In this document: positions 12,338 through 51,556 of the stretch, piece after piece
How the letters are laid out: each line of letters starts with the position of its first letter
Position numbering within the stretch: position 1 is the first letter of the stretch
Virus record (IMG/VR): IMGVR_UViG_3300046747_000361
Source: a virus
Length of the DNA stretch: 62,133 bases
Direction: 5' to 3' (one strand)
The notes under the pieces: model-generated
Database searches by the model: none
What the model saw: only the letters and a program-made list of their open reading frames with translations
Told to the model about the DNA's origin: nothing
Position numbers and translations under genes: made by a program

Positions 12338-12519
12338 GGAAACCTCACATTCACGTGCCAGTGCTTACCGTTGTGCTCGCCCCAAAACTGCCATTGTCTA
12401 GCCCCTTTCACGTAATCACGAGTCAGGCTCAATAGCGTGTCGAGGTCACACTCATTGAACTCGAGTGTGATTGTGTTGTCTGTTTCGATGCTGCGTGTAA
12501 TCGCGTCGTGTGCGGTCAT
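12334..12519 (-). CDS. hypothetical protein
   Basis: ORF track. Confidence 0.5.
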   Translation of the reverse strand: MTAHDAITRSIETDNTITLEFNECDLDTLLSLTRDYVKGARQWQFWGEHNGKHWHVNVRFP

Positions 12520-12638
12520 CAGTATGCGCTCCTTCCTGGCTCGTAACAGACCTCGATCATGAGGCCCATGTCAAAACCGCAAGCGTGAAAGACGAGTTGC
12601 CCGAGATAGTTGATTGCAAATGGGTGAGCGTAATTCAT
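12519..12638 (-). CDS. 39-aa hypothetical protein
   Basis: AAGGAG upstream of ATG 12638. Stop overlaps the next start (ATGA). Below the track cut-off. Confidence 0.4.
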   Translation of the reverse strand: MNYAHPFAINYLGQLVFHACGFDMGLMIEVCYEPGRSAY

Positions 12639-13115: not shown

Positions 13116-13490
13116 TCACTTGCTCACGCGATACTCGGTCGGATCCTCACCTGCACGCCAAGCGGCGCGAAGGTCGTAAGGTGACGCAGTGTCGTTGCGC
13201 CCCGTTGCAGCAAACCATTCTTGAAATGTCAGACCTTCCGCATTGGTCCGTGAATTCGCGCGTGGGAAGTTGAACACGAACACGGCATCGCCATTCGGCA
13301 AGACCCCCTCAACCAGTCCCGCGCCCGACCATTCGTGCTTGGCGCAGAATGCTTGCGCCGCTTCAAGCTTGGGATCGTGTGCGCCGTGATCGTAACTGAC
13401 AGTCATACTCGGCACACCTTCCGCACTCACGCGCAGACGTGAACCCTTAGTCTCACTCGGTCCGAAATACTTGACTACAATCGCCTTCAT
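13116..13490 (-). CDS. hypothetical protein (first gene downstream of hammerhead A)
   Basis: ORF track; GGAGTGAGGA Shine-Dalgarno upstream. Confidence 0.6.
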   Translation of the reverse strand: MKAIVVKYFGPSETKGSRLRVSAEGVPSMTVSYDHGAHDPKLEAAQAFCAKHEWSGAGLVEGVLPNGDAVFVFNFPRANSRTNAEGLTFQEWFAATGRNDTASPYDLRAAWRAGEDPTEYRVSK

Positions 13491-13509
13491 TGTGTCCTCA
13501 CTCCAGTTA

Positions 13510-13558
13510 GAACCATTGCCGTCCTAGCATTCGGCCTGCGTGGCCTCATCAGTGGCTC
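13510..13558 (-). ncRNA. hammerhead ribozyme, type I topology, variant copy A (U15.1-A16.1)
   Basis: Minus-strand RNA GAGCCA|CUGAUGA|GGCC-ACGCA-GGCC|GAA|U-GC(U)-AGGAC-(G)GC-A|A|UGGUUC. Confidence 0.6.
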
Positions 13559-14054
13559 ACAGTGACAGTTTCGACATAACATCCATGTCAGTCTGAAACG
13601 CGGCAAGCAGACGCGGCAGTCGTGCCTCTAGCCATGCCTTCAAGTCTTCACGCGACATGCTCCACAGCATCTCGATCGGGAAGTCATCCTCAAGCGCGCC
13701 AAGCACAATGGTGCTGGCCAGTGCGCTAGGTGCGAGTGCTCGATCTTCGGGCCTGCCATATTTTGCACGCCCATGGTACGAGTCGTGCCAGAAAAGCCCG
13801 TTAGCGACGTAGTGCATCGGTCCTTCAGTCGAGGTGAGATGCCAGCGCACGAACGGTGCTAGCTCTGGGAAATAGCGCGCGACCTGCTCATGTTGACAGC
13901 CTCCTGACAACCAGCCGCGCTCACTTACGCCCGGATGTTTGTACTCGTCCAAAGTCACCGAAAAGTGTGGGGCTTGGTCACCGATCTTGTGCAGTCCATA
14001 CGTCGCGTGTACATAGGTACCGTCAGTGGTTCTACGAAACTTGGTTGTTTTCAT
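13557..14054 (-). CDS. hypothetical protein
   Basis: ORF track. Its UGA stop lies inside hammerhead helix I. Confidence 0.6.
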   Translation of the reverse strand: MKTTKFRRTTDGTYVHATYGLHKIGDQAPHFSVTLDEYKHPGVSERGWLSGGCQHEQVARYFPELAPFVRWHLTSTEGPMHYVANGLFWHDSYHGRAKYGRPEDRALAPSALASTIVLGALEDDFPIEMLWSMSREDLKAWLEARLPRLLAAFQTDMDVMSKLSL

Positions 14055-14452: not shown

Positions 14453-14644
14453 CTAGAACTGGTGTGCGAATGCTTCGTCCCAAGTCTTGTAAGCTGGCGA
14501 GACTTCGAGCCGCGTCATTTTCCGAAACTCGGACTTCGGAAACAGTCGCGACAGTTTCGTGATGGGTTGTTTGGCCTGTGCCTCAGTGACAACCAAGCCG
14601 GCAGTGTACTGATTGTCACCAATAAATCGGATCTTGTGGTACAT
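14453..14644 (-). CDS. hypothetical protein (63 aa, downstream of hammerhead B)
   Basis: Start reassigned to ATG 14644 (GGAGTGAGC ATG). The longer track ORF would read through the ribozyme. Confidence 0.55.
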   Translation of the reverse strand: MYHKIRFIGDNQYTAGLVVTEAQAKQPITKLSRLFPKSEFRKMTRLEVSPAYKTWDEAFAHQF

Positions 14645-14660
14645 GCTCACTCCGTTGTTA

Positions 14661-14711
14661 GAACCGTATGCCAATCCTGGCATTTCGCTGTTCCCAGCTC
14701 ATCAGCGGTTC
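14661..14711 (-). ncRNA. hammerhead ribozyme, type I topology, copy B
   Basis: GAACCG|CUGAUGA|GCUG-GGAA-CAGC|GAA|A-UGCC-AGGAUU-GGCA-U|A|CGGUUC; the full conserved core is present. Confidence 0.85.
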
Positions 14712-15160: not shown

Positions 15161-15430
15161 TTAGGCGATGCGTCCGACGTGGTTTGCTGTGATGGTGATA
15201 CGGTCGAACACGGATGCCTCGGGATCCTCGTTGTATTGCTCGACACCGTCGTCACCCGCTAGCCACTTCGCACCCGCGCGCGACCAGACGCAAGTGTCCA
15301 CGTTGACTGGCTTGCCTTGCATCGCAAGTAGCGTTGCGTGTGTCACCGCTGCGTCGAAGTGCTTGAAAACTTTGGCGCCATTGTTCGTGTCGACGTGAAA
15401 CTCAACATCCTTATGCGATTTGCGCGACAT
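15161..15430 (-). CDS. hypothetical protein (89 aa, downstream of hammerhead C)
   Basis: Start reassigned to ATG 15430 (GGAGUGUGAAU AUG). Confidence 0.55.
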   Translation of the reverse strand: MSRKSHKDVEFHVDTNNGAKVFKHFDAAVTHATLLAMQGKPVNVDTCVWSRAGAKWLAGDDGVEQYNEDPEASVFDRITITANHVGRIA

Positions 15431-15446
15431 ATTCACACTCCAGTTA

Positions 15447-15499
15447 GAACCATATGCGCGCTCCTGCGCATTTCGACCTTCCGGTCTCATCAGTGGTTC
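15447..15499 (-). ncRNA. hammerhead ribozyme, type I topology, copy C
   Basis: GAACCA|CUGAUGA|GACC-GGAA-GGUC|GAA|A-UGCGC-AGGAGC-GCGCA-U|A|UGGUUC; the full conserved core is present. Confidence 0.85.
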
Positions 15500-16970: not shown

Positions 16971-17874
16971 AGTCAGGTGTGGGCGTGGGGTTGTGTCCTC
17001 TTTCTAGGGAATGCGCACTGTCACTGCGCACTCAACCTAGCCTTCGTGTCTACCCCAGCACCGTCGTAGCGGTTTCGCCGAGGCTATTCAGTTTTCACAG
17101 AGCAGCGGCCACTAGGCCCGAGACATCCATGTCTCGCGTCGCTTTCCTGCGTACTCGGCTGCGTTTCCGCTTCGCCGCTGCGCGTCTTGCGCATGAGTAG
17201 ACTCTAGCGCGATTGACGCTCAGCGCCACAATTGAGATCTCTTTTTATCCACAAATACGGTAAGATTACACGCACAACGTATTTTGTGGAAATACTGGAA
17301 TTGGACCTCCTTATAGCGCTCGCCGCGCTCGCCTCGACTGCGCACGAGCGCCGCCGCTGAGGCGCCTCGGCCGAGGCCGCCGCCCCCCTGACCAGGCCTG
17401 ACCTCATGCTTGGCGAGCATGCGTCGCCCGCCGCGTCCGTAGTGGTCTCGCGTGCTTGGCGCCTCGGAGCTCGGCGAGACCGCGGTCTCTTCCACAAACC
17501 GAGCGCGAACGCGTGTGAGAGCGCAGCGCCTCTCCTCTGTGCGCAGCGCATGCGTGCAGTGCAGTGGTGTGCGCAGCGCAACCTACACGCGCAGTGCGCT
17601 AGTGTGCGCAGCGCCACCTACACGGCCACCCGCACGCGCGGCGGGCACGGGGGGTGGGGGTACACTTGGGCGCCCCCTGGCTCTAGCGCGCGCCTACGCG
17701 CCATTTCGCGCGTACAAGTCCCAGCCCCAGATCTCGCCCGAGTGCCCAGCCCCAGATCTCACGCCCGTCTTGGTCGGCGTGCACAAGCCCCCCGGCCAAG
17801 TCAGTGAGCACGAACTATGTGCGCGCAATCACACCCTTGTTTGGCTCACGTAAGCTCGGTTACAGTCTCCCGCC
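16971..17874. promoter_or_regulatory. gene-free divergent control region (candidate origin / operators / early promoters)
   Basis: No credible ORF; all track ORFs here are Arg/Ala-rich GC-frame artefacts. Contains direct repeats, 14-bp palindromes and an AT-rich island with an inverted repeat. Confidence 0.6.
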
Positions 17875-20682: not shown

Positions 20683-23682
20683 TTACGCGGGGAACCAGTC
20701 GCCGATCGAGTACCAGCGCACGTAGTCGATCTCGGCCCAGGTATACGCGTTGCCTGCAGTTACGAGGCGAACGCCGGCATTCACCGACGACATAGAAGTT
20801 GCAGTGATGCCCGCGTTCCCGTTGTAGGTTATCGTGCCGGGAACGGGCTGGTTTAGTAACCCCGTGAAGTTTTTCGTGGTGTCGTTATAGTTCAACATAA
20901 CGACCATGCTCTGTCCTGTACCACCATAGGCTGTGTTGTTGGGTACGGTGAACACGTTTTGATTGTTGTAGGCGATAACGACGTTCGGGTTTTCGTACCC
21001 ACCATACACACTTCGATTACCTGCAGGGGTACTCGGCGTTGTGTTGTTCGATATGATCGGCTGCAGAATGTTTCCAGTAAACACGTTCGGCTGAAACACA
21101 TGAGCCGTGAGTTGCAAGTTTCCCGTGGTTGATTTGTACATGTATAGGACGGTTGCTGGATTCGTTTGAATGTAGAGTCTAGAGTTTCGGATCGTCGACA
21201 GATAGTTCGTCGCGCCTATACCACTAGGGGCCGTTGCAAAGACCACGTCACCGGAACGAGTCAGAGTCGCACCAGAGGCGGCATTGACCACGGTCCAACC
21301 ACGCGTAGCCAAATCGGCACTACCTGAATCGAATTCATCGTTTCGCGCGTCTGGTGAACTTGGAGGGTCGATGTAAATGTTGTGGTAACGCAGGGGAACA
21401 ACTGCCCCCGACTCGGCGACGCTGGTGAGCGTCGCTCGATAAATCGCGTTGTTCGCGGCGCTGTTTGCGAGGTAAATCTGATCGGCGACGACTGGAACGG
21501 ACTTGGCGGTGTAATCGGTGATGTTCCCATTGACCACGTTCCAGAGCACGGGCCGCGGAGTCTGTGCAATCCAAGTGCTTGATGTCGTCTTACGAATGAA
21601 ATCAATGCTGATGATCTCAGGTACGGTACCCGCCAGACTTGCCGACGACAACGTAATTGCAAACCAAACCAAGGTGGCGCTACTGGGCGCTCCAGTTAGC
21701 CGTGAGCTCAATGTGTCACCGGAAGCTGAATCTGTCAGAAAGCCGTTGTAGTTCGTGCTGCTCTCCCAACGAACGCCGCGGATATCGCCAATCGTTGCAC
21801 CGTAAGGCGATTTAGTGGTACCAGAAAAAGCACCACCTGTTGCCCTAGTAATGTCTATATTCGCGGCACCGCTCGTGGTCGAGTACGTAGACACATAGAC
21901 ACGATTGTTCCCGTCTGTTACTCCACCGCTATTCCCGTAAAGACCCACCTCGTAGAAGTTGGTAGAGCTACCACTGTTATCGAAGCGCTGACCCGTACCA
22001 ATGCGAGCGAAGTACGTGTCACCAGCAGCTAGTGTCACGGCCTTCATAATTTGCAGTGAACTTCCGGGAATGAACTGTACCAGCAGCTGTGAACCTTTTA
22101 ATGTGCTCCAATACGTGCCCGCACTCGGGCCGGTGGGGTCCCACGGCGAGACATCTCCGCCTCGCGTTAGTGTCGTACCAGCAGAGTTCTTGACCGTGTA
22201 CCCGCGAGTCGCAAGGTCCGCGCTTCCGCCCTCGAACTCATCGTCAAAGCTATTCGCAGTAGCAGGAGGGTCAATATACGGGTTGCCGCTAGGCAAGCCC
22301 GCGTACGTGCCCGTGACTGAGACTTTGGGCGTTTGGGCGATCCAAGCCGTCGAGCCGCTCGCGAAGCGGAAGAAATCCACAGCCCAGATTCGGCTCGTCG
22401 TGCTGTTAGGCGTACCCGTACCCGTCGCGATGTCATCGAATGAGAAACCGACAAAGCCGATCGACGTACTGGTCGGCGCATTCTGTGCGTAGCTCGTGGT
22501 CGAGCCCGAAGCCGAATCGGCAGAGAACGCAGACCATGTCGAAGTGCCCGACTGGAGGCGCACCCCCAGAATATCCTGAACTGAGATGTTTTGCGATTTC
22601 GGTGTGTCACTATTGGCGCCGGCAAGCGTGCGTCCGTAGCTCATTGTATGCGTATTCGTAGCGCCCGACGTGTAGCTCTGCGTATAGATGAAGTTAGTGA
22701 GGTCGGGATTGCCAGCACTTGCATAGCTTGCAAACACGCGTGCACTGTACGAAACAGTAGTGTTGACAGCGCCATAGACCGGATTGCCCATGCGTCCCCA
22801 AACGGTCGCGTTGCTACCCGAAGCGAAACCACCACTAACGGCTTTGGTGCAGGACATGTACCCGCCGGGCGAGATCTGAATCATGATCTGTGAGCCAACG
22901 AGCGTGGACAAGTACTGTGTATTGGTCAGACTTGATGCGGACACTGACCACGGCGAGATATCTCCAACACGCGTCATAGTTGCGTTGGCTGAGTTTTTGA
23001 CTGTCCAACCTCTCAGCGCGAGGTCAGGCGAGCCCGAATCAAATTCATCGTCGTAAGCCCCTGGCACGAGCGGCGGATCGATGAACGGGTTACCCGAAGG
23101 CAAGCCTCCCGCGACCCCGACAACTGTGTTGCCAACTCGCTGCAGAACTTGACCCGCCGCAATGGATCCAATCGTCAGCGCAGTTGGCCCCGACGTCTCG
23201 TGAATCGCGTTGACCTGGTTCGAGATGATCGGCCCGTTGACATCCCCGACCAAAGTCGTCGCCGGGTACGCGGTCCCGACGACTGTCGCGCCAACGCGTT
23301 GAAGCAGCTGGAAGTCGTTGATGTTACCGATCGTCAGCGCAGTTGGCCCCGACGTCTCGTGGATCTTGTTGACCTGGTTCGCGTTCGCAGGACCGTTCAC
23401 ATCTCCAGCGAGTGTGACGTTTGCTTCGTTCACCTCAACTGAGACGGTCGGCCCGCCAGGGTTCGTGACTGTGATCGAACCATCAGGCGAGTTGATGGTT
23501 GTGATCGTCCCGCCCCCGCCCCCACCAACGTCTTCCCAGCCAGTGCTTGTTTTTACCCGAACAACTTCTGTATCGTTCGCGTAGGCGAGCCCTCCTTCTG
23601 GTGCGTTGGGGGGCTCGTCGCCTGACGGTCCGACTGGTAACTGTACACGTGTAGAACTAGCTTTGGGGGTGGGATTCGCCAC
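20683..23682 (-). CDS. tail fibre / receptor-binding protein with three tandem ~270-aa repeat modules
   Basis: 999 aa, Gly/Ser/Thr/Asn-rich, poly-G hinge. N-terminal duplicated 50-aa unit. Three modules each start (L)PSGNP-x-IDPP...DDEFD-x-GS-x-DLA-x-RG-x-TV. Confidence 0.7.
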   Translation of the reverse strand: MANPTPKASSTRVQLPVGPSGDEPPNAPEGGLAYANDTEVVRVKTSTGWEDVGGGGGGTITTINSPDGSITVTNPGGPTVSVEVNEANVTLAGDVNGPANANQVNKIHETSGPTALTIGNINDFQLLQRVGATVVGTAYPATTLVGDVNGPIISNQVNAIHETSGPTALTIGSIAAGQVLQRVGNTVVGVAGGLPSGNPFIDPPLVPGAYDDEFDSGSPDLALRGWTVKNSANATMTRVGDISPWSVSASSLTNTQYLSTLVGSQIMIQISPGGYMSCTKAVSGGFASGSNATVWGRMGNPVYGAVNTTVSYSARVFASYASAGNPDLTNFIYTQSYTSGATNTHTMSYGRTLAGANSDTPKSQNISVQDILGVRLQSGTSTWSAFSADSASGSTTSYAQNAPTSTSIGFVGFSFDDIATGTGTPNSTTSRIWAVDFFRFASGSTAWIAQTPKVSVTGTYAGLPSGNPYIDPPATANSFDDEFEGGSADLATRGYTVKNSAGTTLTRGGDVSPWDPTGPSAGTYWSTLKGSQLLVQFIPGSSLQIMKAVTLAAGDTYFARIGTGQRFDNSGSSTNFYEVGLYGNSGGVTDGNNRVYVSTYSTTSGAANIDITRATGGAFSGTTKSPYGATIGDIRGVRWESSTNYNGFLTDSASGDTLSSRLTGAPSSATLVWFAITLSSASLAGTVPEIISIDFIRKTTSSTWIAQTPRPVLWNVVNGNITDYTAKSVPVVADQIYLANSAANNAIYRATLTSVAESGAVVPLRYHNIYIDPPSSPDARNDEFDSGSADLATRGWTVVNAASGATLTRSGDVVFATAPSGIGATNYLSTIRNSRLYIQTNPATVLYMYKSTTGNLQLTAHVFQPNVFTGNILQPIISNNTTPSTPAGNRSVYGGYENPNVVIAYNNQNVFTVPNNTAYGGTGQSMVVMLNYNDTTKNFTGLLNQPVPGTITYNGNAGITATSMSSVNAGVRLVTAGNAYTWAEIDYVRWYSIGDWFPA

Positions 23683-49284: not shown

Positions 49285-49337
49285 TACACAGTTTGGATTT
49301 ATGTAGTGCCTAATGCAAAATTCAGTGGTGGTGCCGG

Positions 49338-49409
49338 TAGCGGGTGTTGGATTCGAACCAACGGCCTCTTGGTTATGAGCCAAGCGAGATGCCACTTCTC
49401 CAACCCGCA
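49338..49409 (-). tRNA. tRNA-Met/Ile2-type (anticodon CAT) with U1-U72 mismatch
   Basis: Hand fold: UGCGGGU-UG-GAGA-AGUGGCA-UCUC-G-CUUGG-CUCAUAA-CCAAG-AGGCC-GUUGG-UUCGAAU-CCAAC-ACCCGCU-A. No encoded CCA. Confidence 0.8.
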
Positions 49410-49489: not shown

Positions 49490-49637
49490 GTGAGAGTGAG
49501 CTGTTGACGAGTAATCGCTGATACAACTACGGCGTTCTACCACTGAACTATACCCCAAAACATCGAGGTAGTTGGATTCGAACCAACGACTTCCGGCTCC
49601 AAATGCGATGTAGTACCAACTGAAATTCAACAGCGAA
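49490..49637 (-). ncRNA. Y RNA-like RNA 2 with circularly permuted tRNA-like core (49534..49587)
   Basis: Order: T arm (GUUGG-UUCGAAU-CCAAC), closed acceptor (UACCUCG-AUGUUU-UGGGGUA, 5 WC + 2 GU), U8A9, D arm (GUUC-AGUGGUA-GAAC). Enclosed by the 8-bp helix GCUGUUGA/UCAACAGC. Confidence 0.45.
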
Positions 49638-49644
49638 AAGGGTG

Positions 49645-49851
49645 CCACCGACGAGTGAGCGTTGACAGTATTTTTTGGAGCTCTACCAACTGAGCTACGT
49701 CGCAACTTGCGAAACAACGGCTGGGCTCGAACCAGCGACCGCCCCATTAGCAGTGGATGTAATGCCAACTAGAAATTCGGTAGCGTAAAGACTGTGACTG
49801 ACTGCTATGCCTGACAGAAAACGGGGGTGTTTGTTGTCAACAGCCAGTCAC
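49645..49851 (-). ncRNA. Y RNA-like RNA 1 with circularly permuted tRNA-like core (49680..49736)
   Basis: Order: T arm (GCUGG-UUCGAGC-CCAGC), closed acceptor (CGUUGUU-UCGCAAGU-UGCGACG), U8A9, D arm (GCUC-AGUUGGUA-GAGC). Enclosed by the helix GGCUGUUGACA/UGUCAACGCUC with a C-C mismatch. Confidence 0.45.
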
Positions 49852-49858
49852 CCGATAC

Positions 49859-51556
49859 TTATAGCGCCAGAGCCTCTATCTTTGCAACCCAATTCTTTAC
49901 GTTGCCTGACAAAAACTCCGACACGACTTCGAACACAGAATCACTAAAGCCGCCCACGTTGAGACGGTCAGGTGCACTCGTCGCTTGTGCCGAACTCATC
50001 GCTGCAATGTCGATGCACACGAGCTTGGCGTGTGGCGCGCGCTTCTTGAGCTTGGCCCATTCGGCCATCATCCCCGTCGTGTTGCTGTAGTAGCTGCCGG
50101 CCCACGATTCGTTGTCGCTCACGAAGATCACGACGTCAGGGTTGAGCCCGCGCTTGTTGAGCTCGATGAGGGGCAACTCGCACTGAGTGCCGCCCCCGCC
50201 CAGCTTCGCCAGCTGCTCTGCGAAGTTCATCACCGTCATGTTCTTTTGCGCCTCGGCGATGAAGCAACGGGTGTCGAAGGGCAACACGATCGACTTCTTC
50301 GACCTCTTCATGAACGCAGCTGTGAACAACGCCGCTGCGTCTACATATCGCACCTTCGTCGTTGCGCCCTTGCGAACGCCCGTAATCGGGCTGTTCATCG
50401 ACCCCGACACGTCGAGACAGATCGCGACGTTCGCGTCGAGGAAGGGCACGTTCTCAAGCGCGTGCTCCATCGCGTCATGAAGTGCCTGGACGATGAGCTC
50501 GGGCATCGTCTCCCCCGAGGGCGGCGTGAACTGCCAGGGCTGGGTCTTGGTCTCCTGCACGGCCAAGTAGGCCGACAAGATCTGGTAGGGGAAGGTCTTC
50601 GCCCGCTGTACGAGCTCCTTGTCGCGAAGCCGGTCGGCGATGAGCTCGACCATCGCGGGCTTCTCGAGCACGCCATGACGACGAAACGTGTTCAAATTCT
50701 TGACAGTCATCGTCCAGGACGCGCGAGCCGCGACCTCCGCCCATTCGTCATTCGACAGTCCGAGCGCATCTAGGAGCCTGAAATCAACGTCGGGCACAGC
50801 CCCGGTACGCGTCCGCTTGAACTCTTCGTACTGCTTGATGGTGTCGGGGAGAAGGTCTGCATTGTACCTCGTGACCGTGACAGACTCGCCATCGAGCGTG
50901 TACGGTAGGTCGAACTGCCGCTGACGCGCAATGATGGTGTTGAGGAGGGCCTTGTCTCGGGGCTTGCAGACCCGAACCAGATCGCCCGTGAGGTAGCCAT
51001 AGAGGGCACGACGAGCCGGGTCGTTCGGCTCGGGTCGCAGGCGCCGGATGACATACGCGAGGCTTGGATCTTCGCCGATACTGTCACGCAGGAGGGCCAT
51101 CGGGTGCCTGCGATTGAGCCAATCCTCGCAGAGGCGCCGGGGCTGGCTCCCGAAGTTCTTGCGACCCGTCACGCCAGAGCGGATGATCTGCACGAAGTTT
51201 CGAAGCATCTTGCCGTTGTCGATCACATGAGGGAACGCGCGACCGAACCACTGCGGGGTGTGTCGAGCAGCAAGCACGGCCAGCAGGTACGCCGGCATGT
51301 CCTTGAGCTTGCCCTGTTGCCGCGCATACGCAGCACACTTGGCGAGGAACTCATCGCTGACGCCCTCGGTGAGCTTCTTGACGTCGTCAAGTTGCTCAGT
51401 GGCTGCTGTGTAGTAGGTACTGCCGAAAAACCCAGTGGCTGCATACTGGGCGAGGGCCTCTTTGTTGGAGAGCGCGTAAGCGGCGCCCCCTGCCTTGTTT
51501 TTCACGACCTGTGGCGATAGAAGGGACTTGTCCACGATGCCCCCATCGTGGGACAC
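49859..51556 (-). CDS. rsr: Ro60-related protein (TROVE domain + vWA/MIDAS domain)
   Basis: N-terminal VKNKAGGAAYALSNKEALAQYAATGFFGSTYY (TROVE signature). C-terminal VAICLDVSGSMNSP (MIDAS DxSxS). 565 aa. Confidence 0.85.
   Translation of the reverse strand: MSHDGGIVDKSLLSPQVVKNKAGGAAYALSNKEALAQYAATGFFGSTYYTAATEQLDDVKKLTEGVSDEFLAKCAAYARQQGKLKDMPAYLLAVLAARHTPQWFGRAFPHVIDNGKMLRNFVQIIRSGVTGRKNFGSQPRRLCEDWLNRRHPMALLRDSIGEDPSLAYVIRRLRPEPNDPARRALYGYLTGDLVRVCKPRDKALLNTIIARQRQFDLPYTLDGESVTVTRYNADLLPDTIKQYEEFKRTRTGAVPDVDFRLLDALGLSNDEWAEVAARASWTMTVKNLNTFRRHGVLEKPAMVELIADRLRDKELVQRAKTFPYQILSAYLAVQETKTQPWQFTPPSGETMPELIVQALHDAMEHALENVPFLDANVAICLDVSGSMNSPITGVRKGATTKVRYVDAAALFTAAFMKRSKKSIVLPFDTRCFIAEAQKNMTVMNFAEQLAKLGGGGTQCELPLIELNKRGLNPDVVIFVSDNESWAGSYYSNTTGMMAEWAKLKKRAPHAKLVCIDIAAMSSAQATSAPDRLNVGGFSDSVFEVVSEFLSGNVKNWVAKIEALAL

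Follow-up and report, generated by a model that had tools for sequence, protein, structure and literature searches.

The window analysed here, the full 62,133-nt stretch of IMG/VR record IMGVR_UViG_3300046747_000361, is a phage genome encoding a portal protein, helicases, a primase and a large serine integrase. A descriptor scan found exactly three hammerhead motifs in it, the number given in an earlier note on this DNA, all on the minus strand, all intergenic and all within one run of small genes of unknown function. Two of these, copy B (14661-14711; A15.1 at 14683, U16.1 at 14668, A17 at 14667) and copy C (15447-15499; A15.1 at 15471, U16.1 at 15454, A17 at 15453), are canonical type I hammerheads by descriptor scan, fold and covariance model. 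The third, copy A (13510-13558), fills the gap between a gene for a 165-aa protein (13557-14054, minus strand; phrog_17696), whose UGA stop overlaps helix I of the ribozyme motif, and the Shine-Dalgarno sequence and start codon of a gene for a 124-aa protein (13116-13490, minus strand; phrog_3199), both proteins being of unknown function. After each of the three copies come UAAC, a ribosome binding site of the GGAG type and a start codon. Downstream of copy A, the sequence reads as the Shine-Dalgarno region UGGAGUGAGGA and an AUG at 13490-13488 (together 13488-13505, minus strand). Between 10.5 and 18.1 kb, promoter- and terminator-like sites were no more frequent than in shuffled sequences and none occurred at the hammerheads, which is consistent with a putative long polycistronic transcript.

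The hammerheads also affect gene calling in this region. Mechanical open reading frames at 15161-15490 and 14453-14683 (minus strand) start at the AUG within the CUGAUGA of copy C and inside helix III of copy B, respectively, and the probable true starts of these downstream genes are the AUGs that follow GGAG sites at 15430 and 14644. The same miscalled start is found in public contigs, where protein P0004 begins within a hammerhead. A fourth GGTTCTAAC and a CTGATGA at 12484-12522 were considered as further hammerheads and rejected; both are within coding sequence and the fold is not formed.

Read on the minus strand from 13558 to 13510, copy A is 5'-GAGCCA CUGAUGA GGCC ACGCA GGCC GAA UGCU AGGAC GGCA A UGGUUC-3', exactly the RNA that the earlier note had written out. 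Sequence reading, the descriptor scan, the minimum free energy fold and the family covariance model all describe it as a 49-nt element derived from a type I hammerhead, with U15.1-A16.1 in place of the usual pair. The 5' strand of helix I (GAGCCA, 13553-13558) opens with GA from the UGA that stops the upstream gene (13559-13557) and leads into core positions C3 to A9 (CUGAUGA, 13546-13552). These are followed by helix II (GGCC/GGCC with loop ACGCA, 13533-13545, its G10.1-C11.1 pair intact), core positions G12 A13 A14 (13530-13532), the helix III hairpin UGCU-AGGAC-GGCA (13517-13529), A17 (13516) and the 3' strand of helix I (UGGUUC, 13510-13515), after which comes the UAAC tail (13506-13509). 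Helix I pairs 13558-13553 with 13515-13510, contains one G.U pair and is open, as in a type I hammerhead. Cleavage is predicted 3' of A17, between 13516 and 13515, where the preceding triplet is CAA.

Compared with the hammerhead consensus (Perreault 2011; Rfam clan CL00010), copy A has the three-helix junction, C3 U4 G5 A6 N7 G8 A9, G12 A13 A14, an H rather than a G at position 17 (A at 13516) and the G10.1-C11.1 and U1.1-A2.1 pairs adjoining the core. The one consensus feature that it lacks is the A15.1-U16.1 pair closing helix III, where the U at 13529 pairs with the A at 13517. The earlier description of intact CUGAUGA and GAA cores, intact helices I and II, a G.U pair in helix I, and a U15.1-A16.1 pair with a CAA triplet is borne out on every one of these points. 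Alternative registers were also considered, and none is possible in this sequence that would give a canonical GAAA...UH core. The hammerhead is the predicted minimum free energy structure of copy A (-14.1 kcal/mol), and the centroid fold also has three helices; the stability of this fold is about that of shuffled sequence (z = -0.76, versus -4.2 and -3.3 for the sister copies B and C). For a tertiary contact between helix I and loop II, on which hammerhead activity at cellular Mg2+ depends, neither a pseudoknot nor a bulge partner is evident in copy A.

To place copy A among related elements, we used a covariance model (R1) built from six canonical family sequences, with copy A left out. On the 62-kb window this model scored copies B, C and A at 81.8, 80.5 and 49.4 bits (E about 1e-12 for copy A), with the next best match at 9.3 bits, and it aligned copy A with both 15.1 and 16.1 deleted. 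Among more than 100 unrelated loci, a loose hammerhead descriptor had only 1-2 false positives. Copy A shares with the family its homology to the model, its position between stop codon and Shine-Dalgarno sequence and the invariant UAAC; it departs from the family in having ACGCA instead of an NGAA tetraloop on helix II. By these sequence measures copy A is a true homolog of a compact, 48-53-nt family of phage type I hammerheads.

Rfam at its gathering thresholds reported none of copies A, B and C, and its hammerhead models gave zero matches to copy A even at E <= 10. A relaxed Rfam search gave B and C only 16-19 bits against thresholds of 48-56, and because canonical copies also fall below threshold, the Rfam score is a weak test for this compact family. 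A near-identity search of cultured phages with the copy A region matched nothing, the window having no close relative in that set, and a distant search of cultured phages with the 67-nt hammerhead likewise gave no match. A loose pattern scan of IMG/VR produced more than 118 matches, none folding as a hammerhead; two specific hammerhead patterns had zero matches there, and use of the helicase as an anchor found no IMG/VR relatives. A pattern scan of a genome collection returned chance matches only. More distant homologs of the downstream protein (P0005-P0008) belong to phages that have other intergenic hairpins, without hammerheads.

Searches through the flanking proteins were more productive. 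Exact-protein look-ups recovered the locus, identical to that of the window, in six independent metagenome contigs from several samples, so an assembly error does not account for the unusual core. From homologs of the downstream protein we reached a sister phage (L131-L134 and L139), and the orthologous slot of L131 contains a canonical hammerhead, GAGCCA CUGAUGA GACC GGAA GGUC GAA A UGCC AGGAC GGCA U A UGGUUC UAAC. Window positions 13272-13559 align with L131 9991-10273 at 83% without a break, the alignment taking in the hammerhead and running on into the gene. The two orthologs agree in helix I and in the helix III loop; helix III spans 13 nt in copy A versus 15 nt in L131, and the former 15.2-16.2 U-A pair of copy A now adjoins the core. 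With paralog C as the outgroup, 8 of 8 differences between copy A and the L131 copy are assigned to the lineage of copy A. The 15.1-16.1 pair of copy A had been described in the earlier note as inverted. Because the L131 ortholog is canonical and its helix III is two nucleotides longer around the same loop, the alignment to this ortholog and to the paralogs instead identifies the U-A state of copy A as the product of a paired deletion in which both A15.1 and U16.1 were lost.

Further phages were reached via the 90% cluster members of both flanking proteins, and among them the pair-deleted form, which we call A-type, occurs in three more versions. The version in L173-L178 and L182, taken as reference, reads GAACCA CUGAUGA GGCC GGAA GGCC GAA UGCU AGGAC GGCA A UGGUUC. 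The version in L183 and L184 differs from it in having the helix III loop AGGAU, and that in L179-L181 in a change of G10.1 to A, with an A.C mismatch at 10.1-11.1 in the L179 copy. A second U15.1-A16.1 form is present at 1082-1135 of L173 (GAA U UGCC AGGAU GGCA A A), and since its helix III is full-length, it is by its sequence a true inversion; the same slot in L179 contains a canonical hammerhead. At this locus the upstream 125-aa gene ends within the ribozyme (L173 1082-1095 and L179 1562-1575), its UGA stop being U4-G5-A6 of a CUGACGA core and its last residues being encoded by helix I, so that a terminating ribosome would sit on the catalytic core.

With two canonical members from L151 and one from L152, added by a metagenome pattern scan, the family comprises 13 distinct sequences, 8 with A-U and 5 with U-A at 15.1-16.1. 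Its common form is a compact type I hammerhead, 48-53 nt in length, in which helix I has 6 bp, loop II is NGAA and the tail is UAAC; it follows directly on the stop of a small early gene and leaves ~10 nt to the Shine-Dalgarno sequence of the next. In the alignment of all 13 members 99.4% of cells are paired, compensatory change is seen at 6 pairs and slid controls are at no more than 37%, figures that somewhat favour the structure, since the sequences were aligned by fitting them to the model. Covariation is seen in helices II and III, and helix I and the tail are almost invariant, UAAC being present in 13 of 13 members. The sole core position that varies across the family is N7 (U or C), which is the free position of the hammerhead core, and loop II is NGAA in 12 of the 13, the exception being copy A of the window; the other three A-type versions have GGAA. 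In all five U-A sequences the remaining 11 catalytic-core bases are unchanged, the free N7 excepted. Among these sequences the pair-deleted form has been kept in at least four phage lineages including that of the window, and the A-type sub-lineage retains all other catalytic nucleotides.

Whether the U-A copies are maintained or decaying can be judged from L173, which is A-type, and L131, which is canonical, since on either side their flanks are homologous, with divergence that reaches the very edge of the element. In the adjoining gene, four-fold sites, few in number in these comparisons (35-74), differ by 0.43 between the two phages. Within the hammerhead 6 positions differ, all of them pair-preserving (helix II A-U to G-C, the pair deletion, helix III C-G to U.G, and helix I A-U/G.U), and 0 of 24 unpaired positions differ. 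When 4 substitutions and 2 deletions were placed at random, the hammerhead descriptor survived in 0.1% of 1,000,000 trials. If copy A had been neutral since its split from L131, which the calculation assumes to lie at the midpoint, the probability of its 23 unchanged core and helix I positions would be ~0.002. The exclusively pair-preserving changes and the absence of any unpaired change argue for continued selection on the variant, with the caveat that recombination, for which there is clear evidence at these elements, could inflate the apparent conservation.

The earlier note had left copy A as either a slow or regulated variant or a decaying copy. The comparison, with one pair deletion kept in at least four lineages and a separate true inversion besides the pair-preserving changes, favours a maintained variant for the A-type form; as for the second option, the window copy may be in partial decay. 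It is the most derived copy, since its NGAA loop II is also lost, and its further departures are the ACGCA loop and an additional G.U pair in helix I. Such departures at otherwise invariant positions affect loop II in the window and 10.1 in L179, hence two of the four A-type versions, and would be expected under relaxed constraint; the window copy is the likeliest relic among the A-type elements. In L128 and L160, the orthologous slot is occupied by a non-hammerhead hairpin, so a ribozyme is dispensable there.

Some biochemical precedent exists for a core of this kind. Perreault et al. (2011, PLoS Comput Biol, PMC3088659, Fig. 5 / S6) found that a natural U15.1-A16.1 hammerhead self-cleaves at low but detectable efficiency and attributed this to loss of the contact between A15.1 and G5. 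The same paper cites earlier work in which changes at 15.1 or 16.1 cost at least 10-fold, and it treats absence of A15.1-U16.1 as grounds for rejecting a candidate unless activity is measured (PMC3088659). Effects of more than 100-fold are given for A15.1 mutations as summarised in PMC4075628. A minimal hammerhead cleaving at a UAA site, which has U15.1-A16.1 and A17, proceeds at ~0.006 per min to 14-25% product in 20 mM Mg, and a UAA-site hammerhead with a selected tertiary stabilising motif reaches 0.49-0.65 per min (PMC3923133). As these published U-A hammerheads cleave, a U-A core is slow, not dead, and its context matters.

In our preferred reading, which we consider somewhat better than an even bet, copy A is an attenuated and still functional self-cleaving element, with its cut between 13516 and 13515. 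A single RNA would be transcribed from the early operon (about 17 to 10.5 kb, minus strand), and every hammerhead in it would fold and then cleave 3' of A17. This would give the upstream mRNA a structured 3' end with a 2',3'-cyclic phosphate, and the downstream mRNA would begin 5'-OH-UGGUUCUAAC-SD-AUG, so that cleavage would uncouple the adjacent cistrons. Having lost the contact of A15.1 with G5, copy A would, we infer, cut substantially more slowly than B and C, and perhaps more weakly still on account of its ACGCA loop II.

A wider claim, which we advance only tentatively and would not yet rely on, is that A15.1-U16.1 has been replaced at least once and possibly twice in this family, by paired deletion and by inversion, and that the resulting U-A forms are under purifying selection as a biologically used state of the core. 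If so, the U-A element could be a hammerhead made deliberately slow, a 'timer' for the period over which two early cistrons remain linked, or alternatively the surrounding core context could compensate for the lost A15.1-G5 contact.

That copy A is instead a dead hammerhead seems rather unlikely to us, though it is the main rival. Useful cleavage would have been abolished with A15.1-U16.1, and the element would survive only on account of its youth or of hairpins serving passively as a 3'-end stabiliser or as a spacer before the ribosome binding site, with the window copy decaying further. The pair missing from copy A is the most conserved in the hammerhead, and the losses of activity cited above, both the >100-fold cost of A15.1 mutations (PMC4075628) and the slow, incomplete cleavage of the minimal U15.1-A16.1/A17 construct (PMC3923133), fit a dead element, as do a stability not above that of shuffled sequence, the loss in the window of the NGAA common to the other 12 members, the 10.1-11.1 mismatch in L179 and the hairpins that occupy the slot in L128 and L160. 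Such a loss of function sits poorly, however, with the 11 remaining core bases that are unchanged in all five U-A sequences except at N7, with changes that are all pair-preserving and with retention of the variant in at least four lineages from different samples. A structural role alone would leave the unpaired CUGAUGA, GAA and A17 unconstrained.

The borders of the elements raise another possibility. The window and L173 have sequence in common only from the first base of helix I onward, and the window and L179 only up to the Shine-Dalgarno sequence past the hammerhead, giving breakpoints of homology at hammerhead edges (window 13558 and 13495, L173 2937, L179 3560). The gene pairs on either side of the A-type element also differ, being 165|124 in the window, 127|124-like in L173 and 165|73 in L179 and L183. 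Hammerheads may thus sit at mosaic junctions as recombination linkers, and recombination could have spread or homogenised the element recently, making it younger than its flanks. Taken further, the element would act chiefly at the DNA level, as a cassette-boundary linker for homologous recombination or module shuffling among co-infecting phages, and its conservation, also that of the core, would stem from gene conversion instead of selection on catalysis. Homology that begins and ends exactly at hammerhead edges, a single A-type element between different gene pairs, and the near-invariance of helix I and UAAC in a ribozyme class whose helices can ordinarily covary freely, all accord with this view. 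We nevertheless hold it to be improbable as the main explanation: a DNA linker has no need of three covarying helices, yet helices II and III covary, and it leaves unexplained why N7 is the only variable core base. A linker role is in any case compatible with a ribozyme role, and the two are not mutually exclusive.

The sequence just ahead of the element bears its own marks of exchange. The last 57 nt before the hammerhead are nearly identical in the window, L179 and L183, and the rest of the gene has diverged. Just before copy A, the 3' end of the 165-aa gene contains the hairpin UUUCAGACUGACAUGGAUGUUAUGUCGAAAC (13568-13599, minus strand). Recent recombination may account for the near-identical tract and hairpin, or they may make up an additional RNA element joined to the A-type hammerhead.

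That the motif arose by chance, or through an error of sequencing or assembly, as might be suggested by the lack of a hammerhead at this site in Rfam and by the one base missing from an error-prone A run (GAAA to GAA), can hardly be credited against a family-model E of about 1e-12, the same sequence in six independent contigs from several samples, the same double deletion in three other diverged lineages and a U16.1 that lies outside any homopolymer.

Both clustered phage hammerheads and the U-A core variant are already in the literature, and the elements described here resemble them in part. Like the variant of Perreault et al., the self-cleaving element that we propose for copy A combines U15.1-A16.1 with an otherwise intact core in a mobile-element or phage-type context. 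It differs in that its U-A pair comes from deletion of a whole pair, leaving helix III one pair shorter, and in that the form is a conserved sub-lineage in several phages, where it coexists with an inversion-type U-A copy. The hammerhead of phage PaP3, which we considered as a published U15.1-A16.1 example, was set aside, as it has A15.1 and a different irregularity. The NHH rule of Kore et al. (1998), as cited in PMC3088659 and PMC3923133, is represented by engineered NHH/NAH hammerheads such as HR-F39 (PMC3923133), which like copy A have A16.1 with U15.1 and A17 at the cleavage site. Those are trans-acting laboratory constructs whose high rate needed a selected loop I/loop II tertiary motif; copy A is without the loop II of its family. 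A 2023 pairwise-mutagenesis paper in eLife highlights P1 and P2 alone and does not discuss the 15.1-16.1 pair or helix III.

Prophage hammerhead clusters flank single genes in Clostridium scindens, Azorhizobium caulinodans and Agrobacterium tumefaciens, where processing of long phage transcripts has been proposed, and cutting of polycistronic RNA into gene-length pieces was both proposed and shown in vitro (PMC3088659). As in the window, two or three hammerheads lie within a few kb, on the coding strand and between genes. Unlike those clusters, the family described here is very compact at 48-53 nt, its helix I measures 6 bp, its loop II is NGAA and its UAAC is invariant; it starts at or overlaps the upstream stop codon and scores far below Rfam thresholds.

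In phage T7, the early genes are separated by intergenic RNase III hairpins, at which the polycistronic transcript is processed into stable monocistronic mRNAs. The window operon is similar in having structured elements in the gaps of an early operon, and its other gaps contain hairpins rather than hammerheads. T7 sites depend on a host enzyme; self-cleavage by a hammerhead needs none and produces 5'-OH and 2',3'-cyclic-phosphate ends.

Because A15.1-U16.1 is treated as a hammerhead invariant and used as a filter in genome searches, variants of this kind are discarded, and compact phage hammerheads in general escape Rfam thresholds. Here a U-A core is conserved in several related phages beside canonical copies in the same operon, and the canonical ortholog provides a natural control. 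Together, the canonical, pair-deleted, inverted and loop II-swapped forms make up a ready set for gauging the contribution of this pair to activity in a natural context, and the same set bears on whether the rate of cleavage is adjusted by phages as a means of setting the expression of adjacent early genes.

The hammerheads are one of several kinds of element in the gaps of the early operon. A second intergenic element has the form CUCUGUAG-UCUGACGCUAGCG...hairpin...CGCUAG-RGUGRCACUGACAGGGA and occurs in the window at about 16318-16240, 16070-16000 and 15835-15765 (minus strand), and in relatives at L131 7030-7110, 7460-7535 and 7700-7765, L128 7871-7950 and L152 1470-1531; searched against Rfam, it had no match. 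In its outer helix the upstream stop-codon region (CUCUGU) is paired to the Shine-Dalgarno sequence downstream (ACAGGG), with covariation in L131 (CUCUAU/AUAGGG), and the element could be a translational-coupling device or a processing site. Nearly every 65-90-nt gap in the operon contains some conserved hairpin, for example GACAC...GUGUGRCACGAUAGUU, with instances in the window at 15175-15090, 14145-14055, 13130-13030 and 12720-12640 (minus strand) and in gaps of L128, L131, L135 and L160. Orthologous slots differ across relatives in the type of element present, hammerhead or hairpin, and the two may be interchangeable processing cassettes.

Elsewhere in the window, a 999-aa open reading frame (20683-23682, minus strand) had no match in Pfam or PHROG, and a GC-rich repeat region upstream of the early operon (17083-17640, minus strand) gave only weak matches to sRNA models. 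Further along, on the minus strand between 51556 and 49336, an ortholog of Ro60/Rsr (49859-51556; Pfam TROVE and vWA_Ro60) is followed by two tandem YrlA-like Y RNAs (49642-49783 and 49498-49633; Rfam RF02553 at 30 and 45.8 bits, below the threshold of 69) and then by a tRNA-Met (49336-49409), an arrangement that is, by these annotations, a phage-borne Ro/Y-RNA module.
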